Origin: Curvularia clavata | Taxonomy: Eukaryota | Assembly (NCBI GenBank): GCA_023920165.1 | Contig: CP089274.1 | Coordinates: forward strand, 1,674,001-1,738,000 | Length of the DNA stretch: 64,000 nucleotides | Reading direction: 5' to 3' | Part shown: positions 35,312-63,593 of the stretch, piece after piece | Layout of the letters: each line of letters opens with the position of its first letter | How positions within the stretch are numbered: the first letter of the stretch is position 1 | Notes under the pieces: generated by a model | Database searches by the model: none | Told to the model about the DNA's origin: nothing | The model's input: the letters and a program-made list of their open reading frames with translations, nothing else | Program-made: the position numbers and the translations under genes

Positions 35312-35372
35312 GGTGATATCTCAATCGGACGCTTGGTGTTAAACCGCTTACCGAATCCGTGGGTGGTCAAAG

Positions 35373-35879
35373 TGTTACACGGGGTCCTACTGGTTAGTTG
35401 GGAATATACTTACCTAGCCTAGATTCCGGGTTAGGGCGAGGCCAGTTTCTATGAAGTATACCGTGAGGTAGTTGTCTGGCGATTCGGTGGTAGGGATTAA
35501 CGGAAGATAGACAAAACCAATCCTATTGGAAGATAGAATAACTAGTATCAATCTGAGTATGAAAGGTAACTATGAAAGATACTTTGCTGAGTTGACCACA
35601 ACGAGTGTAATAATGAAATCCAACACATTCTTATACCCATTGCTTCCGGTCCTGTCCTCACTGTCCTCACGGAATAACCCCTGTGTTCTCTGAAGTCCCT
35701 GAAGTCACTTTGGTCACGTGTGAGCGTGTCCTCACATACTAGCGTGGTTTCCCGGTCTTGGCCTGAGGCCAGTCATGTGATCGCCCTTCCGCGGGGATCA
35801 TTACCTTCTGACGTGTCGCCCAATGGTCTCCTACCTGCGGCCATCGTCAAGGAGAGATCCTTCTTTGTTACTTGTAACA
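35373..35879 (-). repeat. Family A shared central LTR
   Basis: Flanked by the PBS region of the left unit and the PPT of the right unit; no TSD. Confidence 0.97.
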
Positions 35880-38800
35880 TTATCCCCCCTCTTAGGGTTA
35901 TCGTCCCGATACCCTGGATTATCGTTTTCCCGTGCGTCGCTTGGCGCTGGTGGCTTGGATAAGTATCGAGGTATGCCCGTTGTGTCGTAGGCGCTTCTTC
36001 CTCCATGCCTTCCTAACCATGCCCAAGGTTCAACCAACTCGTCGTGTCCGTAACCAGAATTCGACTCTTCAGCGTCGGGCCCGCGCTGACCGTATAAGGG
36101 AACAAGGCCGCGAGATGACTTTTCGGTGTAAACGTTGTGAAGAGAAGAATCTTCGTTGTTTCGTGGACACAGCATCTGGTCGCTGCGCTGGTTGTATTTC
36201 GGTTTCCGCTGAGTGTAGCCTTTTTGTTTCTGAGGAAGAGTGGGAGAAGGTCGAGGCTGAGAAGCGGCAAAAGCGTCTCGAGATTGCTCGTGCTGAGGAG
36301 CGCCAGCTTCAGGCTGCGATGGAGACTGCGCGACTTCGGCGCGAGCTCCTAGAGGTTGAGGCGCGAGAGCGAGAATTTGCTGATCGAGATCATGCCATCT
36401 TGAGCCTTCAGGATCGTGCGCAAGAGCAGGCCGAGGGGAGCTCCGCCCCTGGTACGGACCATCCGACAACCGAACCATCGCTACCCGGACTGTCGACTGA
36501 CTTGGGCTGGTTACAGGCTGACGTTTCTTACGACCCTTTTTCACTTGATTATTTCCTTTCCCTCGAGGGTCCGTCCCTCGCTTCCGTGGATGTTTCCGAT
36601 GGTACTCGCGTACCAGTGACCTGCAGTTCGTCAAGTTTCCTTCAGGTTCCCAAGTGTTGTGGCTATCTGGCCATCCTTCCCACCTGACCAAGTACTTCCA
36701 CTGACCGCCTATTTTCTGTAGGTCCTTGATTTCTTCGACCGTATATTCGTCGTCCTCGAGCTCGATATCGTCCATTAGCTCGGCTTCTGGGGGTGCAGGT
36801 TCTAGCAGTTTCTTGTGAAAAACGTTGTGTATGCGCATGCCTGGTGGTAGCCGTAGTTTATAGTTTACGGGTCCCATTTTCTCTAGGATTTCGAATGGTC
36901 CTAATCGGAGATTGTCCAATTTCTTGCTTGGTCGTTTAGTTTTCAAGTTTTGTCGTGACAAGAAAACTCTGTCCCCCTTTTTAAAGGTTGGTCCCTCAAT
37001 CCTTAGCTTATTCGCAGCTTTGGACGTCGTGAGGTTCCTATGAGCGATGTTCCTGCTCAATTCTTTATGCAATTCGCGCATTAGTCGGGCTTTATCGTCT
37101 GCTCCGACTGCGATACTTTCAATATCCTTTGGATCTCGATGAGCAACCGGCTCATATCCGTAGTTCGCGTAGTGTGGCGAGTACTTCGTTGTCGCCGATC
37201 TTGAACTATTGTAAGCCAATTGTGCTGTCGGCAAGAGTTCAACCCAGTTGTCCTGCAGCTTGTTGGCGTAAAATCGCAGATACTGTTCTAGCGTTTGGTT
37301 TGTTCGTTCCGTTTGTCCGTCGGTTTCTGGGTGGAAGCTAGTCGATAGCTTCTTCTTAACTCCCAGTTTTGCTAAGAACGTTGACCAGTATTTCGATGTG
37401 AACAGCTTATCTCTGTCCGTTATGAATTCTTCGGGCATCCCGTGCTCTGATATTAGTGCTTTGGAAACTTCGTACGCGCATTCCTCTGCCGTAATTGTTT
37501 CTTCTGTGGGCACAAACTTTGCCCCTTTGGTCTGTCGACACATTATGACCAAAATGGTGTCGCAGAGTCGAGCCGATCCTGGCTCTAACGATTTCGGGAG
37601 CTTCACTATGAAGTCCATCGTTACGCTGCTCCATGGTCGCGTTGGTGGCGGTAAGGGTTGTAACAGGCCATAGGGCTTATGTCTTTTGGGCTTGTTCTGG
37701 TGACATGCCACACAGTTGCCTACAACTTCCTGCACCTGCGCCCTCAAGCGCGGCATATAAAACGCCTTATTCAGTCGCCTGACCATTTCGTCGATGCTTG
37801 CATGTCCGTATTCTCGTGACTCATGCAGTTCTTTGATGAGATCTTTTCTCATGTGCGTGGGTACGTAGGGTCGACTCTCGTTCCGCGGCTCACCTTTGTT
37901 CTGTAGCCCGTTGAGTTCCTTTTGTCCGTCCAATGGTACCCATTCATTCGCTTTTTGTTGCCATTGCTGTTGCAACGTTTCCACTTGCTCGGCTATCTTG
38001 GCTAATCTAGCCAGATCCGGCTGGTTGTACCTCAAGCTGCCGTCGGGCATTCTCTTGAGTACTGCGTCGTGTGGCTCTTTGTGGCCTTTTCCGCGTAAAT
38101 CGGATCTTCGGCTCAGAGCATCCGCGGCTCCGTTGAGCGATCCTGCTCGATGCGTGATTTTGAAGTCAAACTGAGCTAACATCTCAGCATATCGGACTTG
38201 TCTTCGGTTGAGTTTCTTCGTTGTCATAAAACTCGTGAGGTTCTGATGATCGGTAAAAACCTCGATCGTGTGTGGAAGTCCTAACAGGTATACTTCCCAT
38301 TGTTCAAAGGCATCGACTACTCCAAGTAGTTCCTTATCGTGAACATCGTAGTTCAACTCTGCTTCGTCGAACTTTCTGGAATGGTAGAACACGGGTCTCC
38401 ATTTCCCATCTGGGCACTGCTGTGACAATACAGCTCCGAGTGCGTAATCAGACGCGTCAGTCTCGAGTCTGGTTGGTCGTTGAGGATCGTACATCTCTAG
38501 TACGGGTGCCTCTAGGAACGTCTGCTTGAGCTTGTCGAAAGCTTTCTGTTGTTCCTGTTTCCATCTGAAACCTACTTCCTTCTTCGTGATCTCCGTAAGG
38601 GGTGCTGTGATCTTCGAATAATCTTTTATGAACTTCCGGTAGTAGTTCGCTAGCCCTAGGAAGGACTGAACATCCTTAACTGTTTTGGGCGTTTTCCAAT
38701 CCCGTACAGCCTGTACCTTTTTTGGGTTCATTTTCACTCCTTCGGTCGAGATGATGAATCCGAGGAATTCCGTTTCCTGCGTGTGGAATTCGCATTTCCC

Positions 38801-40141
38801 TGGCTGCAGATATAGCTTGTATTCCTTGAGCTTTCTGAGCACTTTCTTGACATGTTCGATGTGTTCTTCGAGCGTTCCCTTGGAGTACACTAGTACATCG
38901 TCCAAGTAAGCTGTTGCGAAGACACCAAGGTATTCGTGGAGAGCGTTGTTGATGACTGATTGAAAGGTCGCCGGCGCATTCGTTAGGCCGAACGGCATGA
39001 CCGTATACTCGAACAGTCCATACTTCGTCTTGAACGCTGTTTTCCATTCGTCTCCTTCCTTGATCCTGATCCGATAAAATCCTTCTCGGACATCGAACTT
39101 CGTGAACCACTTGGCTCCCTGGAGTCGATCCATGAGCTCTGTTATGAGTGGTAGTGGGTACCGATTCTTTCGGGTTACCGCGTTCAACCTTCGGTAATCG
39201 ACACATAGTCGCCATTTTCCGTTAGGTTTCTTTACGAACAATATGGGTGAGGCCATCGGGCCTGACCCCGGTCTGATGAATCCTTTCTTAAGATTCTTCC
39301 GGAGGTATTCCTTGAGCTCGGCGTCGTGCTCGGGCGATATAGGATACATGCCTCCTGGCGTCAACTTTGCTCCATCCTCGAGGATGATCTCGTGATCCCA
39401 ATCCTGATGTTCTGCTAAGTCTGTTGCCTCGTTTTCTTCGAATAGTTCCTTGAACTCATTCGTTCTGTATTCTTTAGGAATGTCCAACAATACGTCTTTG
39501 GGCTTTTCCTGGGGTAAGGGTCTGTCCTTCTTGGGCACGACTCGTCTTAACCAAATGACTCCTACTTGCTGAGGGTCCTTCGCATAGATTCTCGCGATCT
39601 TATGCGGTGAGATCTTGCCGAATCTCCCATCCCGGGTTGTGCACTGATTCGTCGGGCGTATCTCATGTCGTACTCCAGCAACCCTTTTCGCAGGTTCTCG
39701 GCTGAGTATCGTTCTGTTTCGCCAGTCGATGGCGGGGTTATGGGCATCCAGCCAGTCATAACCGATCAATAGATCCGTTTCTCCTAGATCCATAATGCTA
39801 ATGCTCATTTGACTCTTGGTATCGGACACCTCCAGTGTCACCAGTTCTGTCTCGAGCCTTATCGTGCCTTTGCCGTATGCTACGGGCGTTTCTTCGGCCG
39901 ATATTACCTGTAGCGGACGCTTCTTGCTCCGGTATGGTATTTCGTACTTCTCTACCACTCGGGGTGAGATCATTGTTCGTGCGGCACCGCTGTCTACGAT
40001 TGCCTGTAATTTGTGTCCCTGTACATACACGGTCGTTACCAATTCCTTTGGGCGATCATCGGTGTAATGTACTCGTCTTAGGGTCGTTTTAGGACTGCCT
40101 TTACCAGCGTGACCCTGTCCCTGGTGGCATCCTAGTTTTTT
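35831..40141 (-). CDS. pol: Family A Pol (PR-RT-RNaseH-IN-chromodomain + C-terminal extension), likely expressed by -1 frameshift
   Basis: VDSGA protease, YLDD RT, TDASD/DHQNL RNase H, HHCC + D,D,E integrase, GPF motif and chromodomain YTVEEI...YLVRWEGW. Confidence 0.96.
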   Translation of the reverse strand, partial: KKLGCHQGQGHAGKGSPKTTLRRVHYTDDRPKELVTTVYVQGHKLQAIVDSGAARTMISPRVVEKYEIPYRSKKRPLQVISAEETPVAYGKGTIRLETELVTLEVSDTKSQMSISIMDLGETDLLIGYDWLDAHNPAIDWRNRTILSREPAKRVAGVRHEIRPTNQCTTRDGRFGKISPHKIARIYAKDPQQVGVIWLRRVVPKKDRPLPQEKPKDVLLDIPKEYRTNEFKELFEENEATDLAEHQDWDHEIILEDGAKLTPGGMYPISPEHDAELKEYLRKNLKKGFIRPGSGPMASPILFVKKPNGKWRLCVDYRRLNAVTRKNRYPLPLITELMDRLQGAKWFTKFDVREGFYRIRIKEGDEWKTAFKTKYGLFEYTVMPFGLTNAPATFQSVINNALHEYLGVFATAYLDDVLVYSKGTLEEHIEHVKKVLRKLKEYKLYLQPGKCEFHTQETEFLGFIISTEGVKMNPKKVQAVRDWKTPKTVKDVQSFLGLANYYRKFIKDYSKITAPLTEITKKEVGFRWKQEQQKAFDKLKQTFLEAPVLEMYDPQRPTRLETDASDYALGAVLSQQCPDGKWRPVFYHSRKFDEAELNYDVHDKELLGVVDAFEQWEVYLLGLPHTIEVFTDHQNLTSFMTTKKLNRRQVRYAEMLAQFDFKITHRAGSLNGAADALSRRSDLRGKGHKEPHDAVLKRMPDGSLRYNQPDLARLAKIAEQVETLQQQWQQKANEWVPLDGQKELNGLQNKGEPRNESRPYVPTHMRKDLIKELHESREYGHASIDEMVRRLNKAFYMPRLRAQVQEVVGNCVACHQNKPKRHKPYGLLQPLPPPTRPWSSVTMDFIVKLPKSLEPGSARLCDTILVIMCRQTKGAKFVPTEETITAEECAYEVSKALISEHGMPEEFITDRDKLFTSKYWSTFLAKLGVKKKLSTSFHPETDGQTERTNQTLEQYLRFYANKLQDNWVELLPTAQLAYNSSRSATTKYSPHYANYGYEPVAHRDPKDIESIAVGADDKARLMRELHKELSRNIAHRNLTTSKAANKLRIEGPTFKKGDRVFLSRQNLKTKRPSKKLDNLRLGPFEILEKMGPVNYKLRLPPGMRIHNVFHKKLLEPAPPEAELMDDIELEDDEYTVEEIKDLQKIGGQWKYLVRWEGWPDSHNTWEPEGNLTNCRSLVREYHRKHPRKRGTDPRGKGNNQVKKGRKKRQPVTSPSQSTVRVAMVRLSDGPYQGRSSPRPALAHDPEGSRWHDLDQQILALAPQPLGARAEVAQSPSQPEAGAPQHEQSRDAFAASQPRPSPTLPQKQKGYTQRKPKYNQRSDQMLCPRNNEDSSLHNVYTEKSSRGLVPLYGQRGPDAEESNSGYGHDELVEPWAWLGRHGGRSAYDTTGIPRYLSKPPAPSDARENDNPGYRDDNPKRGDNVTSNKEGSLLDDGRR
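36019..36687 (+). CDS. Antisense Zn(II)2Cys6-like accessory ORF, second copy
   Basis: Identical translation to 29109-29777. Confidence 0.7.
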   Translation: MPKVQPTRRVRNQNSTLQRRARADRIREQGREMTFRCKRCEEKNLRCFVDTASGRCAGCISVSAECSLFVSEEEWEKVEAEKRQKRLEIARAEERQLQAAMETARLRRELLEVEAREREFADRDHAILSLQDRAQEQAEGSSAPGTDHPTTEPSLPGLSTDLGWLQADVSYDPFSLDYFLSLEGPSLASVDVSDGTRVPVTCSSSSFLQVPKCCGYLAILPT

Positions 40142-42222
40142 GACGGTCCCCTGGACCCAAGCTTCTTTCCCTTTCTTTTCCGCGGAAAGTAGCCATGGTT
40201 CTGTTTTGCGTCCAGGTGGATTCTGCAGTTGTCGTCTGTGCAGAAGGTCCAGTGTTCGTTTGGGTGGGGGATCATTTCTTCCAGCGTCTCTGGCAGGTTG
40301 ATCTCCTTTGTCCCGTGCATCCTGCACTTGATCGTCCGGCATTCCTTAGCCGCGATCGTGCCGTGCAGATGGTGATCTGCATGTCTTGCCGCGATTCTCT
40401 GTTCTCGGTGGAATCGGCATTTCTCTATGCAGTTGATCCAGCAGAGCTGCTCGTGAGCTCGTTGATGTTCTTCCTTGTGGATGTGGCAATCCAGCATGGG
40501 GCAGTCGTTTGCCCATAGATGCTTGTGATTAGGATCATGCTCGTCCAACTTGCATTGTTCTTTAGCATCTGAGTGGAACATACAAAACCTCCTTTTGCAT
40601 TCGTTCCAGGCGATCATTTCGTGATCGTCGTGTTGCTTCCATGGTGCGTGGATGGTGCAATCCAATACCTTGCATGCTTCACTTCTTAAGTGTGCGTGGC
40701 AACATTCTTCTGCGTCGTACTGGGACAGTCTCGATTCTTCGGCATGGAACTCGCAGTAGTCTATACTGTCGCATTCGATCCAGTGCAGCTTTCTATGTTC
40801 GTCTTCGCGGTCGTTTTCTGGTTCCGGTAGCTCGTCCTTAAAGTACGGTTGTTCCTGGGCTGCCTGGGCAAGTACTTCCCTGGCCATCGGCCCTGTGACT
40901 GCAATTCTTCTTCCTCGAAGTGGGCAGCCATTGCCGTGGTGTGCTGGGTCTCCGCACATCCAGCATAAGTTTTGTGCGATCCGACGCTGGGCATCTGTGT
41001 CCTTCACGATCCAGTCGGATGGCTGTGGTGGTTCCCATTTCATGTGTTTGTCCGCTCTGACGAGCTCCGGGACAATCACATAATCCGTGTTCTCAGCTAG
41101 ACGTGCTTCGTCGTAGAGGTCTAGATCGCTGAGGTCGTCGTCGGAGGGTAGTGTAGATGGCTGTGACTTCAGCATCCTGATCTTTACTACTGCCTGCTTG
41201 ACTTCGTTCTTCGGGCAGTCTCTGCGGAAGTGTCCTACTTCGCCGCATCGGAGACATGCTTTGTTGTCATAACGCTTCTGGCGTTCTTCCTTGGAAAGGC
41301 CGTCCTGGCCCTTTCCTCGGGGTTTCTTGTCTCTGGTCTTTTCTTGTACTTTTCCCGTCATGATTGTATCGCCGTCCTTGTCTCGGTTGTTGCGTTGTTT
41401 CTTGGTGTTAGCCATGTTGGGTCGAAATTGCCGTTTCTTTTGTTCGTTTCGTTCCCAGATCCTATTGTCGATTCGCGTGGCCAGCTCAATCAGAGCTTGT
41501 AACGTTTCTGGCTTATCATGGTGTACTAGACCGTCTTTGACAATTTCCTTCAGACCGTCTTCGAATACCGTTCGAAGAGCTGCGTCGTCCCAATCAATTC
41601 GCGCTTGTAGCTGCTTAAACTCAGCTGTGTAAGCCGAAACGGACGTGGTCTGCTTCAGGCGTGTGATCGCTTTCTCTGCTTGGTTCTTGGCGTCGACCTC
41701 TCCGAAGACACGTCCCATTTCATCCTTGAAGTTGTTCCAACTTGCGAATAGGGCCTTGGTTTCTTCCTTGGTCCCTTTGGTCTTTATTGACGATAGGTAG
41801 TCCTCCACATATGGTTGGACCCAGTTAGCCGCTTTTCCTTTCATATGCGTACTGGCCATGAGGATCTTTTCCTGATCACTAGGTACCTCGTTGAATTCGC
41901 AGTATAGGTCGATGGTGGTGAGGAACGTTCGTAGGTCGTTACGGTTTCCGTCATACTTTTCGGGAGTTGCCATCTTAGGTTTCTTGACAACCTTTTCGTT
42001 TGGCGTAGCCATCAGCTGACTCATAAGCTGATTAACCATATTCTGCATTTCGATCATCTGCTGTGCCTGAGCCTGGTGCTCGCGTCTGAGATTGGCAAGT
42101 TCCCACTCAGGAGTCCCTGGGGCATGCTCGTTGCCCACTCCCTGGGTGCTTCCGGCCATGTTGATGTCCTGTGCGGGAGCCGGTCCCTGGACGTTGACAT
42201 ACTCGTTGGAGTTGCGTGACAT
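40132..42222 (-). CDS. gag: Family A Gag (right copy)
   Basis: Identical translation to 33221-35311. Confidence 0.95.
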   Translation of the reverse strand: MSRNSNEYVNVQGPAPAQDINMAGSTQGVGNEHAPGTPEWELANLRREHQAQAQQMIEMQNMVNQLMSQLMATPNEKVVKKPKMATPEKYDGNRNDLRTFLTTIDLYCEFNEVPSDQEKILMASTHMKGKAANWVQPYVEDYLSSIKTKGTKEETKALFASWNNFKDEMGRVFGEVDAKNQAEKAITRLKQTTSVSAYTAEFKQLQARIDWDDAALRTVFEDGLKEIVKDGLVHHDKPETLQALIELATRIDNRIWERNEQKKRQFRPNMANTKKQRNNRDKDGDTIMTGKVQEKTRDKKPRGKGQDGLSKEERQKRYDNKACLRCGEVGHFRRDCPKNEVKQAVVKIRMLKSQPSTLPSDDDLSDLDLYDEARLAENTDYVIVPELVRADKHMKWEPPQPSDWIVKDTDAQRRIAQNLCWMCGDPAHHGNGCPLRGRRIAVTGPMAREVLAQAAQEQPYFKDELPEPENDREDEHRKLHWIECDSIDYCEFHAEESRLSQYDAEECCHAHLRSEACKVLDCTIHAPWKQHDDHEMIAWNECKRRFCMFHSDAKEQCKLDEHDPNHKHLWANDCPMLDCHIHKEEHQRAHEQLCWINCIEKCRFHREQRIAARHADHHLHGTIAAKECRTIKCRMHGTKEINLPETLEEMIPHPNEHWTFCTDDNCRIHLDAKQNHGYFPRKRKGKKLGSRGPSKN

Positions 42223-42283
42223 GGTGATATCTCAATCGGACGCTTGGTGTTAAACCGCTTACCGAATCCGTGGGTGGTCAAAG

Positions 42284-42790
42284 TGTTACACGGGGTCCTA
42301 CTGGTTAGTTGGGAATATACTTACCTAGCCTAGATTCCGGGTTAGGGCGAGGCCAGTTTCTATGAAGTATACCGTGAGGTAGTTGTCTGGCGATTCGGTG
42401 GTAGGGATTAACGGAAGATAGACAAAACCAATCCTATTGGAAGATAGAATAACTAGTATCAATCTGAGTATGAAAGGTAACTATGAAAGATACTTTGCTG
42501 AGTTGACCACAACGAGTGTAATAATGAAATCCAACACATTCTTATACCCATTGCTTCCGGTCCTGTCCTCACTGTCCTCACGGAATAACCCCTGTGTTCT
42601 CTGAAGTCCCTGAAGTCACTTTGGTCACGTGTGAGCGTGTCCTCACATACTAGCGTGGTTTCCCGGTCTTGGCCTGAGGCCAGTCATGTGATCGCCCTTC
42701 CGCGGGGATCATTACCTTCTGACGTGTCGCCCAATGGTCTCCTACCTGCGGCCATCGTCAAGGAGAGATCCTTCTTTGTTACTTGTAACA
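42284..42790 (-). repeat. Family A 5' LTR
   Basis: 507 bp, followed on the + strand by TSD CTAGG. Confidence 0.97.
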
Positions 42791-43244
42791 CTAGGCTAGG
42801 GTTAGACTAGGTAGATATAGTATCTAGACTAGAGTAGGGCTAGATAGTAGAGTACTTAGATAGAGGTAGGGCTAGATTATATAGTATATAGATTATAGCT
42901 AGATTAGTAATATCTATTAGTAGAGTGGTATTTAGATCAGGGGTACCCACTATAGGTTAGGGGTAGGGTTAGGGCCAGCCCCGCCCTAATCTTGGTTTTA
43001 GCAGCCCTAGCCCTGCTAAGACCTAGACTAGAGTTAGGCTAGCCTAAGTCTTAGTAGGGCTAGGATTAGGCCTAGAGCTATTAAAACTAGAGTTAGACTA
43101 GTCTATCTTAAAATATTCTTATTTTTTTTAAGTATTTACTAAAAAAAAATAAGAATACTTTAAGGTAGGCTAGTCTAACTCTAGTCTTAGTAGCTCTAGC
43201 TCTAATCTAGTCTAGCTATAATAGCTACTAAGACTAGCCCTGCC

Positions 43245-43515
43245 TGTAACGGCGCGAGCAAGACTAGTCGAATCGGTTCCGGTGGGAAGTGTCACTCAAA
43301 TGCATATGGAAGTGCGTGGGACAGCAGAAACACCTTGGATTCGGTAGACACTCATAGGCCTGGTACGAAAGGATATCAAAAATCTACCGAACATCTATGG
43401 AAGGTACCTGGTACTTATACCTGGGTGCGGGTCTTCATCGGGTCTGACCCGGCTCTCAATCGGATCTTGATAAGCTGCCCTGGCTGGGGTATGTTTTGGT
43501 CTATGCATGGTTACA
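43245..43515 (-). repeat. Family B 3' LTR
   Basis: TGTAAC...GTTACA, matches 50170-50440. Confidence 0.96.
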
Positions 43516-44000
43516 TTACCCCCCCTCCCGGTAGACAGCTGGTCCCACAGCTGTCTGTTCCGGTTGTCATTCTTCTTCCCTGCACCATGGGGTCCCTCGT
43601 TCCTGATTTCCCCCAGATTTTCCCCACACTGCGCCACTTCGGGCAATAGGATGCTCCGGTTCCGGTGTGGCTCCCGTGGCCGTGCATGTCCTTCACTTGA
43701 GCCTCTGTGCCTGAGCCTCAGTGACCATTCCGGTACTCACGTGGCGCTGCTGCCTTGCTGCCTGGCCGCTAGGCCGTTTGCCTTCACCTGCCAGACAGGC
43801 CTGGACGCTTCGATCGGAGCTCCGAGTCGCCGGCGATTCGTTTGTAGTCAGGGTCCAACGGCTATCCAGGTCACGTGTGCCAAGACTGTTTGCTCCCCCA
43901 GTGTGTATATCAACAACAACACAGTGTCGCCGCCGAGTTTTCTCCTCCACGCTTCTCAATCAAAACAAGTCAATTACAACTCAACGCACTCGTTTTCGCT

Positions 44001-44668
44001 ATGCCTCTTCGTTGTCCGCCCGGTGCGCTGCCGGATGCGTATCGCTTCATCTGTCTGCGAGCTGTCCGCGCCTTGGCGCGCCGTCAGTTCGACATTGCTT
44101 ACGCCTACCCGTCCGATTCCTCCAAGAAGTGTCTTTATTGCACCCAGCAGAAGGAGAAGTGCGATCCTGTAAGTTTGCTTCTCTTTTCCTTCACTGTTTG
44201 CAGCTTGGCTAACCCGGATAGGTTCCCGAGTACGTCTTCGAGGAGTTTCACGATTTGATCGATGCCATCGAGTTGTGTGCCATCGCTCGGTATGGCCCTG
44301 CAGTTGATGCCGATACGGAGGTATTGCTTGATCGAATCGCTGCCGCCGCTTTGGACATCGCCCGCAAGGTCCAAGTTGTCAGGTCCCAGGAGAAGGAGCT
44401 TTCAGTCAATCAGCTCCTCGTCGCCCAGAACCAGGTCCTGAGGGACATCCGAGACAGCATCTCGGAGTTGGTCGATACAGTCAATGGCATGGAAAGGCGC
44501 CTTTCGCGTCTTGAGGCCAGGTCGGCTCGGGGTGGCGCCCGGGTCGGCCCTCGGGTCGAGGAGTCGGAGGAATGGTCTGGTTTGTCCTCCTCCTCAGAGG
44601 AGGACAAGGGTGCGGTTGACCAGGAGATGGCCGACGCTGAGCAGGAGCGCTCTGATGTTGAACTTTGA
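44001..44668 (+). CDS. Spliced antisense accessory gene of family B (Cys cluster + coiled coil + acidic tail), 204 aa
   Basis: Exon 44001-44168, intron 44169-44221 (GTAAGT...GCTAAC...TAG) and exon 44222-44668 join in frame: ...KKCLYCTQQKEKCDP|VPEYVFEEF... Confidence 0.78.
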
Positions 44669-44766
44669 GTGAGGTGACATTTTGGGGGTTTGTTGGTGGT
44701 TGTGGGGTTCGGGTCCGAGTTTCCTTTGTTACTGATACCCAATGAAGTTTCTGTTTTTCCTTTTCT

Positions 44767-47700
44767 TTAAATTTTGTCATCCTGCAGTGAAGTCATATCC
44801 TCTGTGCCTTGTTCCCATGCCGTGATCCACTTGCCAAGGGAACGTGGGGGTCCCGGTTTGGTGGGATGTTGTTCATGGAAGAGTTTGAGCTTGTGTGGGG
44901 CTCCCATGAAGTTTGAGGCTGGGTACCAGGTAGGATCCGGGTCATGTCCGACCCACCGTACTTGGTATTTTAGGTTTGAGCGGTACAACTTGCTTGCTAG
45001 GATTTCTTCTACCTCCCATTCTTCCACGCCTTGGATGGGAGTTGCTGGGGGCTTTGGAGGTTCTTGTCCTGGGAGGGGGTCTTGAGGATCTTTGCATAAT
45101 AGATCCGGGGCGAAGACATCATGGATCCGGGACCTTTTCGGAAGGTCCAAGCGGTATGAATGTCCTACCTTCTCAAGTACCCTGAAGGGTCCCTCCCATT
45201 TGGAGGATAGCTTCCTACTCGGACGGTCTGACGCGAGGTTCCGGGTACTTAGGAAGACCATGTCTCCCACATCCCAGTCAACAGAACGACGATGGCGGTT
45301 GACTGTGGTTCGCATCCTGTCCTGGGCTTTCTCCATTTGTTCCTTAGCTACCTTCCATGCGTCGTGCATGCGGGTAGCCATTTCCAATGCATCCTTATGG
45401 TTGAGTTTGTCAGTGGGGGTGAGAAGGCTGGTGGAATGTTTCCAGTCCCAACTCTGCCGGGGTTCGGAACCATATAGGATGTGGTACGGGGACATGCCAA
45501 TGGAAGAATGTGGTAGGGAAATTTGAGCACGATCGATCAAAGGTAGAAGTCCACTCCAGTTGTCTTGGTAGTAGGATACGAATGGGCGCAACCTCTGATC
45601 GATGTACTTATTCATAATCTCTGTCTGACCATCCGTTTCTTTGTGGTAGGCGGTTGACAGCTTGACCTTAACGCCTAGGATTCGGCAGAATTCCGACCAG
45701 AAGCTTGAAATGAACTGTGGTCCTCGGTCAGAGACTATGGTTTCAGGTGTGTGGCCAAATCGGTACACCCATTGAACGAATAGGTCGGCCATTCCCCTTG
45801 CATCAATAGTCTTGTGGCAGGGGATGGAGATGGCCTGCTTAGATAACCGGTCGATCACGACCATGATCATGTCGTAACCGGATCGGTCTCGGGGAAATTC
45901 CTTAAAGTCGATGCACAGGTGCTGCATCGGCCGGTCAGGAATTGGCAAAGGATGAATCATCCCTGGAATTCGGGTCTGTCTAGGATGGGCCTTCCTACAG
46001 GCTATGCAATTCCGCACATACCTTTTACAGGTGGATTCCATACCCTTCCAGTGGTACTTCTGGGACAGTAGTTGGTAGGTCTTCTTTGCACTGGGGTGCG
46101 CTGAGGATACCTGGTCGTGTACTTCCCGAATGAGGCGAGTCACAAGGGTAGAGGTGGAAGGAATGCATAGGCGGTTGGAATAGAGCAGGAGTCCGTTTTC
46201 GATCCGGTATCTGTCCGGAAGGGACCTTCGCTCTGCCCCAAACGAGGCTCGGTTCTCTTGTAGGATAGACTCGATCAGCTCCAGCGAATCGAGGGACATC
46301 GGCTCCGATATGGGCTCAACTACAAGTAAGGAGAAAGATTCCGCTTGGAGTTGGGCTACATAGGTCTTAGCAAGTTCGGAGTTGATTCGGTTGTCAAGTC
46401 GGTGCGGTCCCAGGAGGACCCGCGAACGGTTGTCAATTTGGGCTGTCTTCAGATTCCCCACATCTTGCTCCCGTCGGGAGAGGATGTCAGCACGAGCATT
46501 ATCCTTTCCGGGGGTGTATCGGATGTGGAAATTGAAGGATGCCAACTCTTCCGCCCATCGCACCTGGCGGGCATTCAGAACTTTGGTAGTCATGAAGTAT
46601 TCAAGGGAACGGTGGTCTGAGTACACGTCGACACGAGAGCGTACCGACAGCAGTTCAGGTCGCCACTTGCTAAACGCCGTTACGATGGCGAATAGTTCTT
46701 TGTCGTGTATTTCCCAGTTCAGCTCAGACCCGGATAGGACCTTGCTGAAGAATGCTACAGGACACCAATTTCCATTTGGCTGCTTTTGGGAAAGAACGCC
46801 TGCCACAACGCCATCGGACGCGTCGGTCTCCACCTTGGTATCATACTCTGGATGGTAGTGGTACAAGGTGGGAATTGCCAGCAGTGCAGATTTTAACCTT
46901 TCAAAGGCTTGGTCGCACTCCGAATCCCATACGAATGGTCTTGAGGGGCTCTGGAGGGCGAGGAGAGGTTTCGCAATTCGCGAGTATTCAGGAACGAACT
47001 GCCTGTAGAACCCAGTGAACCCTAGGAACGACTTCACACCAGTAACGGTGGTAGGTCGGACCCAATCTTGAAGGGCTTCCACCTTGTCAGGGTCCACCTC
47101 TAGACCTTGGTTGGTCAAAATGTACCCTAGGTATTTGGTCCGAGTGACATGGAATTCGCTTTTCTTGATGTCAACTTGGAGACCGGCTTGCCTAAGCCTT
47201 TCCAAGACCTGTTGTACGTGGCGGGGGTGGTCCGGTTCCGATTCGGAGTAGATCAAAATGTCGTCTAGGTAGACTATGCAGAAGCTGTCTAGATAATCAA
47301 TCAACACATCATTCATGTAGCGTTGATATGTTGCAGGGCCGTTGCATAATCCAAAAGGCAACACTTTGGACTTGTAGGTTCCGTATCTAGTGCGGAACGT
47401 GGTGTACTCCTCCGAGTCGGGGTGCATTCGGATCTTGTTGAATGCCGCACGTATGTCGAGCTTGGTGAAGATTTTCGCCTTGTGGGTGCGGGCTAGAAGC
47501 TCGTCAATGCGTGGTATCGGATACGCATCCTTTCTGGTGATTGCGTTGAGTCGGCGGTAATCTACACAGATGCGAATGTCTCCGTTTGGCTTCCGAACAC
47601 AAAGGACTGGGGAGGCGAAGGGGCAGTGGCTTGGGTCAATGTGTCCTTTCCTAAGGTTTTCCATTACGAACGTCTTGGTGGCTTCGAGTTCTTCAGTGCT

Positions 47701-48702
47701 CTGCTTGTACAGAGGACTGAATTGATTCGGAAGAGGTTCGGTCAGCACAATCTTATGATCGTATGGGCGATGTTCGGGCAGTAGCTCTGCCGCTGTCTTG
47801 CTGAAGACATCGCGGTACGAATGGTAAGCGGATGGAAGTCGGTCCCGAACAAGTTTGGCGTTTTCGGGATCGTCTGGCTTCATGCGCTCTTCTAAGATGC
47901 GATCGATCTCATAGATACTTGTCGTGAAGAACTCGTTTTCCTTACGCTTCATAGAATAATGGAAAGCATTTGCCGAAATGATGGCGATACGGGGTGAAGA
48001 TGTTGGTCGGATAGGGTCCGGAGTAGGGTCGGGAACAGGTAGTGGTAGACGAACCTTGGGAAGTTTGAGGCATCCTCTAATTCTTCGCATGAGAGCTTTG
48101 CGAGGACTGTTTTGCCTACGGTAGTTGTCCTTTTCCCATAGTGCGTCTCGCCTCTGTATGTCCCGTTCCACATCAGCATCGATGGAAGGTTGTTTCAACT
48201 GTACAAGGATAGGTGGCGCGGGATCATATGTTGGAGGGTACTTGGCCGGCCATACGATCCGGTTCCGGCTCGTATCAAGCCTAAGCTGGAAACGTCTTAA
48301 CCACTTGATTCCAATTATGCAGTCCTGTGTCCCTAGATCCATGATCACGAAGGGACAGTTGTAAATCTTTCTTCCATCGATTCGGATATGTAACCGAATA
48401 TATTTGTCTACCCTAGTTTGGACTTGGTCCTGAAATCCTTTGACTGTGATCTTGAAGGGAAGTCTTCGGATGGGGACCTGAAGGGAGCCGGAGAGGGTAC
48501 GAGCAATAGCAGAATTTAAGAATAAAAAGCCTTGGGCTCCAGTGTCAACTAAGGAGTGCAAGCTGACACCAAACCCTTTCGAACAAAGAACGGTGGGTAC
48601 TAGGAAGTGTTTTCCTCCGAACAAGTGGGATAAATCAATTTTAGCTAGATCGTACTTGTTCATGCCTAGGGCGGAGAGTTTTCCTAGGCCTGGTGGTTTC
48701 CC
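44767..48702 (-). CDS. pol: Family B Pol (PR-RT-RNaseH-IN-chromodomain), likely -1 frameshift from gag
   Basis: VDTGA, YLDD, TDASD, HHCC, VSDRG, TDGQTE, GPF and EWEVEEIL...YQVRWVG. Confidence 0.96.
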   Translation of the reverse strand, partial: GKPPGLGKLSALGMNKYDLAKIDLSHLFGGKHFLVPTVLCSKGFGVSLHSLVDTGAQGFLFLNSAIARTLSGSLQVPIRRLPFKITVKGFQDQVQTRVDKYIRLHIRIDGRKIYNCPFVIMDLGTQDCIIGIKWLRRFQLRLDTSRNRIVWPAKYPPTYDPAPPILVQLKQPSIDADVERDIQRRDALWEKDNYRRQNSPRKALMRRIRGCLKLPKVRLPLPVPDPTPDPIRPTSSPRIAIISANAFHYSMKRKENEFFTTSIYEIDRILEERMKPDDPENAKLVRDRLPSAYHSYRDVFSKTAAELLPEHRPYDHKIVLTEPLPNQFSPLYKQSTEELEATKTFVMENLRKGHIDPSHCPFASPVLCVRKPNGDIRICVDYRRLNAITRKDAYPIPRIDELLARTHKAKIFTKLDIRAAFNKIRMHPDSEEYTTFRTRYGTYKSKVLPFGLCNGPATYQRYMNDVLIDYLDSFCIVYLDDILIYSESEPDHPRHVQQVLERLRQAGLQVDIKKSEFHVTRTKYLGYILTNQGLEVDPDKVEALQDWVRPTTVTGVKSFLGFTGFYRQFVPEYSRIAKPLLALQSPSRPFVWDSECDQAFERLKSALLAIPTLYHYHPEYDTKVETDASDGVVAGVLSQKQPNGNWCPVAFFSKVLSGSELNWEIHDKELFAIVTAFSKWRPELLSVRSRVDVYSDHRSLEYFMTTKVLNARQVRWAEELASFNFHIRYTPGKDNARADILSRREQDVGNLKTAQIDNRSRVLLGPHRLDNRINSELAKTYVAQLQAESFSLLVVEPISEPMSLDSLELIESILQENRASFGAERRSLPDRYRIENGLLLYSNRLCIPSTSTLVTRLIREVHDQVSSAHPSAKKTYQLLSQKYHWKGMESTCKRYVRNCIACRKAHPRQTRIPGMIHPLPIPDRPMQHLCIDFKEFPRDRSGYDMIMVVIDRLSKQAISIPCHKTIDARGMADLFVQWVYRFGHTPETIVSDRGPQFISSFWSEFCRILGVKVKLSTAYHKETDGQTEIMNKYIDQRLRPFVSYYQDNWSGLLPLIDRAQISLPHSSIGMSPYHILYGSEPRQSWDWKHSTSLLTPTDKLNHKDALEMATRMHDAWKVAKEQMEKAQDRMRTTVNRHRRSVDWDVGDMVFLSTRNLASDRPSRKLSSKWEGPFRVLEKVGHSYRLDLPKRSRIHDVFAPDLLCKDPQDPLPGQEPPKPPATPIQGVEEWEVEEILASKLYRSNLKYQVRWVGHDPDPTWYPASNFMGAPHKLKLFHEQHPTKPGPPRSLGKWITAWEQGTEDMTSLQDDKI

Positions 48703-49874
48703 GCCCGGTCCTCCTCCGATAAGTATTCGTGTGCTTCTTCGAATTCTTCCTTCTCTGCTTCGATTTCTCGAACCCGAGGAATGGGGCACTCATTCGCATA
48801 ATGTCCAGGTTTTCCGCAGTTATAGCAATTGCTAGTAGTCGGTTTGCTATCCAGTGCGGGGGTCTTTGAAGGGAACCTGGGGGTATTAGAATGAGCGCGA
48901 GATTGGGTCGGAGCTGGTTCGGATCGGACTCCATAAGTGTTTGGGCGGTAGTCCCGGTATTGACTGACGCGGGGCTTCGTTGGTGGAGTACGAGAATTAT
49001 TGGAAGTGGGTTCCGAACCGTGTCCGAAAGGAGTGTTCCTTCTTTCGGTATCGAAGGCAGTAAGGTGTTGTATCATCTTGTCAAAGGAGTTGTTCCACTG
49101 GTGTTTAAATCCCAAGTTTGGAACACGCAAGGCGGGGGTAATTTTTTCCCATAAGTAGAAAAACCACTCCGACTTCGATACGGATCCTTTGACGGCAGCA
49201 CTTATAAATTTTGCCTTAAATTCAGCGAAGGTTTCCTTTTTGTCCATGAGCAAGCGGTGGAAAGCAGCGCGGCTTTCCGCTTGCTCGTTGCCGGATACGA
49301 AGTATGATTTTAGAGTAGCTATCATATCTTCGGCGTTTTGGAACCGGTCCTCCACCGAATCGGCTAGGTACTGTGGTTCCAGGTATCCCTTGGCGATACC
49401 TGTAGTATGTCCCCAGACTAGAGCCATGCGTGCGCGTTCACTCCGATAATGGTCCGCGTTGATTGTTAAGCGGTCCTCTATTGACGCTTGCCATTGGCGG
49501 AACGTAGGTTCTGTTCCATCACTAAGGTTATCAATGGAAGGGGTACGTTCTGTGAGTTTGACACGTAGCAGGTCCGGGGTTGCTGACTGGTACCTTCCGA
49601 ATTGAGTTTCGGTTGGTTCAGCGATAGTCGGTGGTGATTCGGTGGAGGGGAGAGGTTGATCTGGGGCTGCGGTGTTTTGGCGGGACAGCCGTGCGATTTG
49701 TTCGTTTAGCCTGTCGATCTCTGCCCGAAGGAGGCTAGTCTCATCCTCTTCCGAATCCTCTTCCTCTTCGACGGCTGGCGGTTTGCCAGGCGTCTTCTCT
49801 CTTGACTTCGAATCTTGGAAGCGCGGCGACTTCCTGGAAAGCTCTCCTGAGCCGGATGGGGTTCGGTCAGCCAT
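48684..49874 (-). CDS. gag: Family B Gag, 396 aa
   Basis: Single CCHC knuckle CYNCGKPGHYANEC; short overlap with pol at GGGAAAC. Confidence 0.93.
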   Translation of the reverse strand: MADRTPSGSGELSRKSPRFQDSKSREKTPGKPPAVEEEEDSEEDETSLLRAEIDRLNEQIARLSRQNTAAPDQPLPSTESPPTIAEPTETQFGRYQSATPDLLRVKLTERTPSIDNLSDGTEPTFRQWQASIEDRLTINADHYRSERARMALVWGHTTGIAKGYLEPQYLADSVEDRFQNAEDMIATLKSYFVSGNEQAESRAAFHRLLMDKKETFAEFKAKFISAAVKGSVSKSEWFFYLWEKITPALRVPNLGFKHQWNNSFDKMIQHLTAFDTERRNTPFGHGSEPTSNNSRTPPTKPRVSQYRDYRPNTYGVRSEPAPTQSRAHSNTPRFPSKTPALDSKPTTSNCYNCGKPGHYANECPIPRVREIEAEKEEFEEAHEYLSEEDRAGNHQA

Positions 49875-50169
49875 CGACGGTTGTCTTCGTGGCTGATGGG
49901 TTTTTGGTAGTCTCCGAGTCTCTACCTTGGCGCAATCTACGCGACTTCTCCGAAGTTAACCTGACTGCAATCAGTACAGGAGGTCCAAACCCAAAGGCTT
50001 CGGTCGGCGGGAGATCGAAGGGATCCCGCCTGTGTGTGAATGTGGGACGTAACGGTGTGAAGTATCCGGAGCGGTTCCGGAGGGACTTGGGCTTGGGCGC
50101 GGTCTCAACAAACAAGCTGCGATATTGTTTTGAAGGCCGTCACCGGCTGGGACGAGATTTTTGATATAA

Positions 50170-50440
50170 TGTAACGGCGCGAGCAAGACTAGTCGAATCG
50201 GTTCCGGTGGGAAGTGTCACTCAAATGCATATGGAAGTGCGTGGGACAGCAGAAACACCTTGGATTCGGTAGACACTCATAGGCCTGGTACGAAAGGATA
50301 TCAAAAATCTACCGAACATCTATGGAAGGTACCTGGTACTTATACCTGGGTGCGGGTCTTCATCGGGTCTGACCCGGCTCTCAATCGGATCTTGATAAGC
50401 TGCCCTGGCTGGGGTATGTTTTGGTCTATGCATGGTTACA
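50170..50440 (-). repeat. Family B 5' LTR
   Basis: Matches 43245-43515; followed by TSD CTGCC. Confidence 0.96.
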
Positions 50441-51205
50441 CTGCCTAGCCCTAACTCTAGTCTTAGTAGGGCTAGGGTTAGGCTAGATTAGTTTATATAA
50501 GATCTAACCCCGCCCTGACCCCGACCTAAATACCACCCTATCTATTAGATTACTATATTATTATAAGGTTACTATATCCTTATAGTATATATCTAAGTAC
50601 TAGATCTATAATATATTTTAGAGCTTTAAAAAATTTACTATAGTATGTTGAAGTAATGGGTGGCTGCTAGTACTACTAGTAGTAGACTTAGACAGCCTGA
50701 TCGAGAGACTCTAGATAGACGAGAGATTGCTAGGGGAGAGAGTTGATGGACACGATTAACTTTGTATAAACTGCTCTTGTTTCTATCTACTAGCTATTCT
50801 ACTACTATATATATTAGCTGGAGTAGATTCTAGAAGAATCTATCTAGTAGTAGCTTGCGTAATCTTTAGCGTCATAGACAGATGTCTATAGATCGATTAT
50901 AGTCTTGACAGATCGACTATAGACTAAGTTGATTCTGGGTGTAGAAGTACGCACCCAGATACTGTAGATTAGCTGACTAGCTTAGATCTACAACATAGTA
51001 AGCTACTATTATATAAATACTTATTTCTAAAGTACTTAAATTAAGTACTAGAGTAAGCGATATAATATATAGAGATAGATATAGCTAGAGTAAAAGACTT
51101 TAGATAGTAATTATTTAAACTATAGAGAGTAGTACTATATAGAGAGCTATCTCTAAATTTATATAAATTATAAAATAGAGTTAGTAGAATACTACTATTT
51201 ATATA

Positions 51206-53060
51206 ACGTAGTTTATAAGCGAGTCGGTCATATAAGCGAGTCGGTCACCCCTCTAGCTTTGATCACCCACCTTAACTTTACGCGCAATGTCTCTACACCA
51301 CGCTTCTAAATTAACTTCTCACGAAGGGGATATTCAGCTTGCCTTTTCTTCTCTAGATAGTAATTAAATCTAGAGTATCTGACGCGCTACTATAGCCTTT
51401 AATGTTCCAAAATCAACACTAATCGACTAACGCGCTAGGAGATACGCGCGGCGCGATTACCAGCCTAATTTAAAGAAGCTATCGCAGCTAGAAGAGTAAG
51501 TAATTACTAGCTATATAATCGATCTCGATCTATGTAGATTTGCGTCTACCTATACTGCTATGCGAGATATAGCTGATAAGCTGCTGGCTACGCGCGACGC
51601 TAGCTAGATTGGCGTTCACTGGCCGCGCAACTTTGTTAAGCGTACAGACAGTCTTACGACGCGTTTCAATCGAGCGTATAATAGATAGAGAGCCCTATGT
51701 GAAAATCCGGTCTTAATTAAGAGCTGGTTTAAGCTTATAGAGCAGACAAAGGCTAAGTATGGCATCTGCGACGAGAACGTCTACAACTTTGATGAAGCTG
51801 GCTTTTTAATAGGCAAAATTACTACTTAGCTTGTCGTTATAGTATTAGAGAGAAGAGGCCATCCAAAGGCTATCTAGCTAGGTAGTCGCGAGTAGGTGAC
51901 GTTTATTACTACGATTAACGCAGCTAGCTGGTCTATCCCACTATTTCTAATCTTTACTAGTAAGTATTACCTGTCTGCCTGGTACGAGGAGGCAGAAATC
52001 CTACGCGACTGGGCGATCGCAGTAAGCAAAAACAGCTAGACGACTAATAAGCTTGGAGTTAAGTGGCTAAAGCACTTTATTAAGTATATAGATGGTAAGA
52101 TTATTAGAGTACGCCAGCTACTTATCTTTAATAGCTATAAGAGCTACCAGTCACTTAAGTTCCAAGAGCTCTATAAGGAGAACAATATCTACACGCTCTG
52201 TATGCCGCCTCACTCGTTTTACCTACTCCAGCCTCTTAATATTAGCTGCTTCTCTCTATTAAAGCGCGCGTATAGCCGTAAGATAGAGAGTCTAATATGT
52301 AACTATATCAACTATATCACTAAGCTCGAGTTTCTACTAGCATTTAAGATAGCGTTCAATCAATCCTTTACGCTAGCTAATATCTGCTCAGCTTTCTAAG
52401 GCGCAGGCCTTGTTCCTCTCTAGCTAGATACTATTCTATCAAAGCTTGACGTATAGCTACGTACGTCTACTCCTCTAGCTGCTCTCGCGGAAGCTCTCTG
52501 GCAGCCCTATACGCCAAGCAACGTACGCGAGCTTAAAGCTCAATCAACACTAATAAGTAATCGCGTTCGATAGTATAAAAGCTCTTCGCCAGCTTCAATT
52601 ATTATAGCAATTAATTAGCTTAAGAAAGGTGCGCAAGTAATAATACTATCGGCTAAGCTAATACGCGATTAGATCACTAGTCTTCAGAAGGCTAATAAGC
52701 TAGCATCAAAGCGTAGACAGCATAAAAGAAAGCGAATACAGAAGTAAGAAGTACTTACAAAAAAAACTAGCGAGAATATTATCGCTCAACGCGATACTAA
52801 TAAGCAGATTGCTCATAAAGAGCGTCAGGGAGGAGAGCGATTAGGTGTTAGCGGCCGGGCTCTTACGCGCTATAGTAGATGCAAAGAGACTAGCCATAAC
52901 TCGCGTACATATAAGAAAAATACTCTAGATAGCAATTAATCTACTATCTTAATATCTGTCAAAACTATCTATATATAGTGGAGCTACACGCTTGTAAAGG
53001 TGCGCAAAGTTAGTAGGGTGACCGACTCGCTTGTATGACCGACTCGCTTATAAACTACGT
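51206..53060 (+). mobile_element. Fot1/pogo-type Tc1/mariner DNA transposon, full length (1855 bp), RIP-inactivated
   Basis: ~45-bp TIRs beginning ACGTAG with a doubled AAGCGAGTCGGTCA, and TA TSD. Relic DDE motifs YNFDEAGF and MPPHS.YLLQPL, with many TAG/TAA stops. Confidence 0.93.
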
Positions 53061-55635: not shown

Positions 55636-56054
55636 TAGGGTGGTATTTGGGTTGGGGTCAGGGCGGGGTTGGGTCTTATGTAAACTAATCTAGCCTAACC
55701 CTAGCCCTACTAAAACTAGAGTTAGGGCTAGACGGGGCTAGTCTTAGTAGTTACTATAGCTAGACTAGGTTAGGGCTAGGGCTACTAAAACTAGAACTAG
55801 AATAGCCTACTTTAAAATATTTTTATTTTTTCTTAGTAAATATTTAAAAAAAATATAAATATTTTAAGATAGACTAGCTTCATTCTAGTTTTAGTAGCTC
55901 TAGGCCTAATTCTAGCTCTACTAAGACTTAGGCTAGCCTAACTCTAGTCTAGGTTTTAGTAGGGCTAGAGCTACTAAGACCGAAGTTAGGGCGGGGCTGG
56001 CTCTGACCCTACCTCTGACCTATGGTGGGTGCCCCTGACCCAAATACCACTCTA
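55636..56054. mobile_element. 419-bp hAT MITE, uninterrupted copy
   Basis: TIRs TAGGGTGGTATTTGGG / CCCAAATACCACTCTA (RIPped CAGGG...CCCTG), 8-bp TSD AAGATAGT, palindromic AT-rich core. Confidence 0.92.
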
Positions 56055-63519: not shown

Positions 63520-63593
63520 CAGGGCTAGAGTTAAGCTAGGTTAGCTTATATAAGACCTAACTCTGCCCTAACCCCAATCTAAATACCACCCTA
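63520..63593 (+). mobile_element. Right end of a hAT-family element related to the 419-bp MITE
   Basis: Aligns with ~50468-50540 (…AAATACCACCCTA); upstream sequence differs from the MITE. Confidence 0.75.

Follow-up and report, generated by a model that had tools for sequence, protein, structure and literature searches.

Can a fungal long terminal repeat (LTR) retrotransposon carry, on the strand opposite to gag and pol, an intron-containing gene of its own, and what might the product of such a gene do? The question is raised by a 64,000-nucleotide stretch of the Curvularia clavata genome (GenBank assembly GCA_023920165.1, contig CP089274.1, positions 1,674,001 to 1,738,000; hereafter the window, in which coordinates are given). 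An intact Ty3/gypsy chromovirus of this window, element B, has its gag and pol on the minus strand and, between the pol stop and the 3' LTR, a plus-strand gene in two exons whose product would count 204 amino acids (Table 1). Examination of its relatives and of its carrier allows us to conclude, with high confidence, that this is a real protein-coding, intron-containing gene of the retrotransposon, not a host locus, kept intact by purifying selection. As far as our searches reach, it is the first-described member of a conserved family of proteins combining a cysteine domain with a zipper helix, referred to below as family B.

The gene had been proposed in a sequence-only reading of the window, and all the coordinates of the intron and of the two exons that it separates were confirmed in the sequence. 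The intron opens with GTAAGT and has a CTAAC branch site 9 nt before its 3' TAG; if kept in, it would shift the frame and leave an 85-amino acid product (open reading frame, ORF, 44001..44258). An alternative 3' splice site located 18 nt upstream (TGCAG) keeps the frame but meets a TAA at once, and was rejected. The gene converges on pol, with 98 bp between its stop codon (44666-44668) and that of pol (44767-44769), and 485 bp separate its ATG from the inner edge of the 3' LTR (43515), distances that agree with the roughly 100 and 485 bp read earlier. The whole pol-LTR region of element B measures 1.25 kb.

Relatives of the protein were sought in several ways. A word-indexed protein search returned two matches only, both from Curvularia clavata: P0004, an annotated 204-amino acid protein with the same splice and 99% identity over 148 exon-2 residues, and P0005, a second and degraded copy. 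Seven family members were listed by a second word-based search, and an exhaustive HMMER search of 1.84 billion proteins with P0004 gave 55 representatives at E<=1e-3, 16 of them at E<=1e-10 and two at E<=1e-30. These homologues are 25-67% identical and come from two fungal classes. The named members belong to the Pleosporales (Bipolaris victoriae, B. maydis, Clathrospora, Polyplosphaeria, Plenodomus lindquistii with four proteins, Zopfia and Didymella) and to the Leotiomycetes (Diplocarpon, Pseudogymnoascus destructans with at least eight proteins, Stipitochalara and Cadophora), a patchy and multi-copy distribution such as is expected for a gene carried by a transposon. Botrytis, Sclerotinia and Monilinia are absent among the names of the seven listed and 30 looked-up members, most of which are nameless, and no relative was found in the viral contigs scanned. 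Alignment of P0004 onto the window by tblastn covers both exons, and three distant homologues likewise align to both exons in the spliced frame (E of 4e-34, 3e-25 and 2e-8).

Conservation reaches down to single residues and to the splice site. Among the 63 aligned sequences, the initial methionine (57/60) and the cysteines C18 (55/57), C44 (56/57), C47 (55/56) and C54 (55/55) are near-invariant. Twenty of the 63 rows read past the end of exon 1 as P-V-S, that is, into a GTAAGT intron; since P-V-S corresponds to an unremoved GTAAGT that has been translated, the intron site is common to the family. A metagenome scan with eight closer family sequences yielded five loci, L001-L005, the first four being one locus in four samples with 4-6 base differences. 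Genomic context is therefore known for three independent loci, two inside an element (the window and L005) and one solo (L001-L004). L005 is a related chromovirus, 78% identical to element B in the pol protein and 63.5% in gag, and its homologue is again antisense, between the pol stop and an LTR, with a 47-nt GTAAGT...CAG intron at the same codon. The solo homologue (L002 8001-8530, also in L001, L003 and L004) is interrupted at that codon by a 51-nt intron and is without the basic/acidic tail.

The sequence-only reading had named, together with a lack of spliced antisense reads, the absence of a conserved ORF and splice site among relatives as what would speak against it; ORF and splice site were both found to be conserved in the family alignment, in L005 and in L002. 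That reading also argued, soundly, that retrotransposition leaves an antisense intron in place: an intron on the strand that genomic RNA does not present to the spliceosome is copied at each round, and the protein consequently needs a separate plus-strand transcript. The shared site in L005, in the solo L002 and in the 20 family members mentioned above agrees with this argument.

No DNA-level similarity was found between the spacer plus antisense region of element B and L005, while pol aligns at 72%. In the spliced frame, identity at first, second and third codon positions amounts to 0.54/0.60/0.32 between the window and L005, 0.52/0.68/0.31 between the window and L002, and 0.72/0.78/0.48 between L005 and L002 (for the last pair, nonsynonymous and synonymous divergence, dN and dS, are 0.31 and 1.19). 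Such an order, with second positions above first and first above third, points to a translated and constrained frame that runs across the splice. The antisense protein evolves faster than pol and gag, its overall identity between the window and L005 being 41%. Copies are conserved, in L005 at the same place, as two proteins in Curvularia clavata, and as multi-copy sets in Plenodomus and Pseudogymnoascus.

The intact state of the carrier, also part of the initial claim, was borne out by identical LTRs, target duplication, polypurine tract, gag and pol. The LTRs match at 271/271 positions (100%), start with TGTAAC and end with GTTACA, and a polypurine tract of the sense strand (43520-43529) abuts the 3' LTR. 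The gag has a CCHC zinc knuckle (zf-CCHC 1.1e-7), and pol, of 1298 amino acids, contains protease, reverse transcriptase, RNase H, integrase, SH3-like domain and chromodomain (RVT_1 2.4e-39, rve 1.7e-15, Chromo 3.4e-5). The features that define chromoviruses, namely a CCHC gag, a protease to integrase order with a C-terminal chromodomain, TG..CA LTRs and a 5-bp duplication, are thus all present in element B (43245-50440, minus strand). Its insertion splits a repeat, the flanks 42921-43240 and 50445-50545 matching an uninterrupted inverted copy at 55631-56054 that provides an empty-site control. Element B is evidently a recent insertion and a young element.

The predicted protein has a simple architecture. 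An AlphaFold2 model built from the 63-sequence alignment reaches a mean pLDDT (predicted local distance difference test score) of 84.5, with values above 85 over residues 1-160. It comprises two short helices (19-26 and 45-50), three longer ones (59-80, 88-114 and 118-159, the last of 42 residues) and a disordered tail. Over its six heptads, the helix 118-159 is zipper-like, L, I, V or M filling 10 of its 12 a/d positions. Residues 1-56 are basic (isoelectric point, pI, 9.2) and the last 45 acidic (pI 4.05, with 14 D/E), the tail being also Ser-rich. The coiled coil and acidic tail described from the sequence were thereby recovered, as was the C-x2-C-x6-C with an upstream Cys, at residues 44, 47, 54 and 18.

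Several results weigh against the interpretation of this locus as an element-borne gene for a regulatory protein. The first concerns chance. A stop-free run of at least 149 codons is obtained in 543 of 1000 Markov-1 shuffles of 43516-44766, so that ORF length is uninformative in this GC-rich region and the case for a gene rests on its relatives. By the same measure a 221-amino acid plus-strand ORF in another frame (43507-44172) was dismissed, runs of that length being found in 73 of 1000 shuffles.

The second concerns expression. RNA was looked for in four runs (X1, X2, X12 and X3) over 43200-45500, all consisting of low-depth assembled contigs and only X2 being recorded as RNA. A separate spliced transcript, which the sequence-only reading had implied, found no support there. 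The splice joint 44168/44222 was seen in none of these contig-level runs, and the intron is unspliced in a contig of X1 (1035 nt, 43954-44987), the only run to cover exon 2, and in a metatranscriptome contig of X2 (269 nt, 43988-44256). Contigs show neither strand nor rare isoforms, and sense genomic RNA or DNA would also show the intron; the X1 and X2 contigs therefore neither support nor exclude an antisense mRNA. An indirect lead is given by six members from Logan/ENA assemblies with prokaryote-style calls (P0127, P0129, P0137, P0165, P0185 and P0187), in which the frame runs uninterrupted across the exon junction, as cDNA-derived contigs would give. Taken with the shuffles and with the failure to match any Pfam family, the RNA result is what could be said for there being no gene at all, only a reading frame and splice signals that arose by chance in a GC-rich spacer and were spread by automated annotation. 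We regard this as very improbable, as it would have to account for homologues of such divergence in two classes with Met1, the four Cys and the intron site conserved, for the order of codon-position identities, and for a confident fold from 63 aligned sequences.

The third concerns the solo homologue. No pol or gag was found within 8 kb of it in L002, nor any LTR or repeat; it lies in an ordinary gene neighbourhood including an amidase and a DUF2293 gene (Pfam on the neighbours), from which it follows that the family is not strictly bound to elements. Together with the far greater divergence of the protein than of pol between the window and L005 (41% against 78%), this copy speaks for a passenger, a host gene or gene fragment transduced into an ancestral chromovirus, perhaps expressed but of no use to the life cycle of the element; gene transduction by LTR elements is a documented source of extra ORFs (PMC11963269). 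Transduced passengers are, however, usually found in one or few copies according to PMC11963269, whereas this gene persists with pol diverged to 78%, in two fungal classes and with its coding signature kept. A true host gene would moreover be expected in most sequenced Dothideomycetes, and only 55 sparse representatives were found. In a maximum-likelihood tree rooted at its midpoint and comprising 26 rows (fragments, exon-1-only sequences and intron read-throughs, which make up 40 of the 63 sequences in the alignment, were left out), the solo copy nests within the Pleosporales, with the window clade on one side and that of L005 on the other (supports 88/83 and 93/91). This position fits an escape better than an ancestral host gene, and would favour, without being decisive, an origin of the solo copy from an element. 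A mere passenger is thus unlikely in our judgement, and a gene belonging to the element is preferred.

The fourth concerns the nature of the protein. Its Cys pattern is C-x25-C-x2-C-x6-C, with four Cys and no canonical spacing, and DNA binding by the window protein is on that account no more than putative. No Pfam family was found for exon 1, exon 2 or the 63 members (0/63 convincing at E<=0.1), and a PDB sequence search with three profiles gave nothing meaningful, the best match being NSL1 with E 0.014 over the coil. Foldseek of the full model against PDB and BFVD gave nothing at E<=1e-3, and a wide structure comparison of that model only generic long-helix or coiled-coil matches (Z 5.5-6.0). 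A search of the ESM Atlas by features returned only unnamed Ascomycota clusters at 0.9; the candidates DUF3716 (0.77-0.79) and DUF8257/DUF8414 (0.79-0.80) fell under the lead threshold and were set aside, DUF3716 being also unmatched in Pfam.

Whether the Cys domain is related to the Zn2Cys6 cluster of fungal transcription factors can be approached through its variants. Of 68 sequences, 24 have a six-Cys form that typifies the Leotiomycete branch and includes some proteins named 'Zn(2)-C6 fungal-type' in UniProt; its spacing, C-x2-C-x11/12-C-x8/9-C-x2-C-x6-C, occurs in 19 of the 63 family rows. A four-Cys form, found in 31 of the 68 and in the window protein, is without the second and third Cys and keeps the first, fourth, fifth and sixth. 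The canonical pattern C-x2-C-x6-C-x5-12-C-x2-C-x6-8-C of PF00172 occurs in none of the 63 rows, and Pfam Zn_clus matches none of the 63 members at E<=0.1, nor exon 1 or exon 2 at E<=1. In a model of exon 1 (pLDDT 82.5) the C-x2-C-x6-C half-motif begins a short helix. Foldseek gave no match for this model; among 48,161 chains compared with it, the GAL4 DNA-binding domain (1aw6) came top of two with Z>=2, a weak match (Z 2.7, root-mean-square deviation 3.4, 40 residues aligned). For the six-Cys member P0145, seven of ten structure rows of the ESM Atlas are Zn_clus clusters, with template modelling (TM) scores of 0.46-0.56 that lie under the naming bar.

The support for a Zn2Cys6 relationship is therefore consistent but weak, and the low Z of the GAL4 match, with the 3-4% profile comparisons reported below, belongs among the weak points of our interpretation. 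In the GAL4 cluster, the first and fourth Cys bridge two metals, and the first, fourth, fifth and sixth Cys make up one complete zinc site. These are the very positions that the window protein keeps, which suggests that its Cys domain is what remains, with one zinc, of a Zn2Cys6-like cluster, a reading to which we give an even chance. In general order the window protein resembles GAL4-type Zn2Cys6 factors (PF00172), in which a basic Cys-rich N-terminus precedes a coiled coil for dimerisation and then an acidic region. It differs from these factors by four Cys instead of six, by the x11-12 of its six-Cys relatives where the first half of the canonical motif has x6, and by having neither a Pfam or PDB sequence match nor the fungal-specific middle homology domain.

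A comparison closer at hand is provided by the same window, in which a second chromovirus, element A, carries an antisense ORF of its own. Element A is a tandem of the form LTR-internal-LTR-internal-LTR (28462-42790) with 508-bp LTRs, its two 7.4-kb units being 99.99% identical and the middle LTR common to both, which suggests unequal recombination of recent date or a tandem integration. Its antisense ORF (36019-36687) encodes 222 amino acids without an intron and has an identical second copy at 29109-29774. This family A protein has 160 relatives at E<=0.01 across the Pleosporaceae (Bipolaris, Exserohilum, Pyrenophora, Alternaria and Stemphylium), and a canonical C-x2-C-x6-C-x8-C-x2-C-x6-C is present in 37 of 40 rows, with Pfam Zn_clus matched in 35 of 40 at E<=1 (best 2e-4). 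Many of these relatives lie on JGI/ENA contigs of about 0.8-2 kb that may be transcripts, and some rows have Cys-to-Tyr changes typical of repeat-induced point mutation (RIP). In element A, the pol frame remains open for about 300 low-complexity residues beyond the chromodomain into the LTR (35831-36900; twin about 28900-29990), so that both strands are open for about 670 bp over the antisense Zn2Cys6 ORF.

The sequence-only reading held that two divergent chromoviruses carry the same kind of module. As regards architecture and position this stands. Both genes are antisense and occupy the part of a chromovirus that separates the chromodomain end of pol from the 3' LTR, both proteins have a Cys cluster, a coil and an acidic or Ser-rich tail in the same order, and each forms a conserved family. 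Common descent, on the other hand, was not detectable. Comparison of family A with family B by hhalign gave probabilities of 0.2% (single sequence), 3% and 4%, none significant, the last value coming from the six-Cys subset, in which the six Cys fall in register. Family A is intronless, with a canonical cluster and Zn_clus matches, whereas family B has an intron, no canonical cluster in 63 rows and no Pfam match. The pol of element A is about 35% identical to that of L005.

That these genes represent an under-described class, as had been suggested, is not supported, because the layout was published in 2011 for brtn of Boty (Zhao et al. 2011, Virology 417:248; cited in PMC8365987, PMC7264820, PMC4227169 and PMC5987419) and plant examples have been reviewed. 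In Boty of Botrytis and Sclerotinia, brtn lies antisense, with pol on one side and the 3' LTR on the other (PMC8365987, PMC7264820). The likeness is that of a chromodomain Gypsy element of a fungus, with an additional gene on the opposite strand flanked by pol and the 3' LTR, in many copies and in related species; the hosts of Boty are Leotiomycetes and that of element B a Dothideomycete. In plants, additional ORFs (aORFs) of the type 'aORF-3R' are known from maize Grande, rice RIRE2, Silene Retand (TRP28) and Phaseolus PvRetro13 (PMC7264820, PMC11963269). They resemble the present gene in position and orientation in Ty3/gypsy elements, in family-level conservation and in a proposed role in DNA binding and regulation, and the antisense protein of Grande has been reported as nuclear and expressed from its own promoter (PMC11963269). 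Their carriers, as far as described there, are non-chromovirus elements with multi-kb pol-LTR regions, compared with 1.25 kb in element B, and their proteins (TRP28/PF04195 and others) are unrelated to family B. The word 'intron' does not occur in PMC7264820 or in PMC11963269.

An antisense accessory gene in this place is thus a layout already known, and what is new here is the protein family, not the principle. HBZ of human T-cell leukaemia virus type 1 (HTLV-1) is also antisense; the gene is partly spliced, is transcribed from the 3' LTR and specifies a zipper protein (bZIP). It is comparable in its antisense position at the 3' end of an element that uses reverse transcription and in its small, zipper-type product, here a candidate nuclear regulator. 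HBZ is a bZIP protein in another type of element and of host, without sequence relation to family B, whose members are Cys-domain proteins. The parallel between plant aORFs and retroviral antisense genes has been drawn before, with mention of the HTLV antisense proteins (PMC11963269). In the literature covered, which included few subscription journals, nothing was found that connects a zinc-cluster protein with an antisense gene in a Gypsy element of a fungus.

The best explanation overall, and one that we consider somewhat probable, is an accessory gene that belongs to the element itself. A promoter of its own, in the spacer or the 3' LTR, would give rise to the antisense mRNA, and the 53-nt intron would be spliced from this plus-strand transcript. 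The Cys domain may bind zinc, the zipper helix may mediate oligomerisation, and the protein would act in the nucleus on the DNA or chromatin of its own element. More tentatively, and at less than even odds, the architecture suggests a regulator directed at DNA or chromatin, nuclear and probably oligomeric, which could act in trans on transcription or integration of the element, a role resembling those proposed for plant aORF proteins and for HBZ. A part in histone H3 lysine 9 methylation (H3K9me) or DNA methylation is pure conjecture.

The same geometry could also serve restraint. Along its whole length the antisense mRNA would find its complement in the genomic RNA's 3' untranslated part, and the protein or this RNA might damp the element through DNA binding, recruitment of silencing or RNA interference, as a self-limiting or co-opted repressor. 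Small RNAs derived from retrotransposons are abundant in Botrytis (PMC8365987), and the solo copy, constrained in that 3/3 exon-1 differences among L001-L004 fall at third codon positions, could be domesticated. This alternative seems improbable to us: conservation at the protein level indicates that the protein matters and not the RNA alone, an acidic tail after a zipper is generally more typical of activators, and elements bearing the gene are successful here, with identical LTRs and other insertion sites in other samples. An accessory regulator that serves the element is accordingly preferred to a repressor.

A candidate cis-element for such a regulator, a weak lead only, may be seen in the 9-mer CGGTTCCGG. 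Five exact copies occur in the 64-kb window, for 0.22 expected, all of them on the plus strand and within element B. No other 9-mer is as frequent in the element, and a 9-mer multiplicity of at least four was reached in 9 of 300 Markov simulations (p about 0.03). It is not present in the related element L005. A more general scheme, which we regard as speculative and rather unlikely, would have ascomycete chromoviruses commonly encode their own GAL4-like factor antisense beside the 3' LTR, of a canonical two-zinc type in family A and of a divergent type in family B, shrunk in the Pleosporales to a one-zinc, four-Cys form. Each factor would read CGG-type sites of its element (here CGGTTCCGG in the U5 region, leader, pol and presumed antisense promoter region) and drive or tune that element, with an occasional escape to the host as in L002. 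If true, such factors would be a fungal counterpart of the retroviral trans-regulators HBZ or Tax.

Table 1. Features of element B and of its antisense gene, in window coordinates.
Feature	Position	Strand	Basis
Target-site duplication CTGCC, left	43240..43244	.	read in sequence
3' LTR of element B, 271 bp	43245..43515	-	identical to 50170-50440; X12 and X3 contigs diverge at 43245
Spacer from 3' LTR to antisense ATG, 485 bp, presumed promoter region	43516..44000	+	promoter role inferred
Exon 1, 56 codons, basic Cys domain C18/C44/C47/C54	44001..44168	+	alignment, sequence
Intron, 53 nt, phase 0, GTAAGT...CTAAC...TAG	44169..44221	+	sequence; same site in L005 and L002
Exon 2, 148 codons and stop, helices and acidic Ser-rich tail	44222..44668	+	sequence, fold model
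pol of element B, convergent with antisense gene	44767..48663	-	domain matches
gag of element B, CCHC	48684..49874	-	domain matches
5' LTR of element B	50170..50440	-	LTR identity
Target-site duplication CTGCC, right	50441..50445	.	read in sequence
Candidate cis-element CGGTTCCGG, five copies (LTRs, antisense-upstream spacer, pol, leader)	43274, 43657 (43657..43665), 48260, 50072, 50199	+	exact match

The wider setting is that of a fungal chromosome. The first 28 kb of the window hold ordinary genes, among them those for a CCR4-like nuclease, a Sec14-like protein, an HPC2-domain protein, a GH47 mannosidase and a TCP-1 subunit, and are followed by a transposon cluster and, from about 52 kb, by an AT-rich block. 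This block (52000-64000, 22-30% GC) lies beside the transposon cluster and contains the repeat copy 55631-56054; RIP-mutated repeats would look like this. In the runs X12 and X3, contigs depart from the window exactly at 43245, where the LTR edge is joined to other sequence. In X3, leader sequence adjoins this edge, and in L005 the 5' part of gag and the leader (1-587, 722-1169) stand directly past the LTR that follows the antisense gene. Both orders are as expected of a tandem element, of a one-LTR circle or of an assembly path through identical LTRs. The spacer of L005 also contains a 24-bp unit repeated 3.4 times (1427-1507), 165-245 bp upstream of the antisense ATG, and that of element B has no tandem repeats of note; tandem arrays in the pol-to-LTR region have been reported for plant Retand elements.

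Extra genes of LTR retrotransposons are rare and their functions almost wholly obscure, those of the plant cases and of brtn included. Family B is useful in this respect, as it combines a confident fold and a clear domain logic (Cys domain, zipper, acidic tail) with a conserved intron that demands an antisense mRNA, and its presence in a fully intact, recent element gives a good experimental handle. The same 64-kb window moreover holds a second, unrelated-looking chromovirus with a canonical zinc-cluster protein encoded at the corresponding place. Should these proteins not be transcription factors, our findings would be a modest addition to the catalogue of antisense aORFs. If they are transcription factors encoded by the elements themselves, they would establish a retrovirus-like self-regulation in fungal retrotransposons that has been largely hidden from annotation pipelines by repeat masking.

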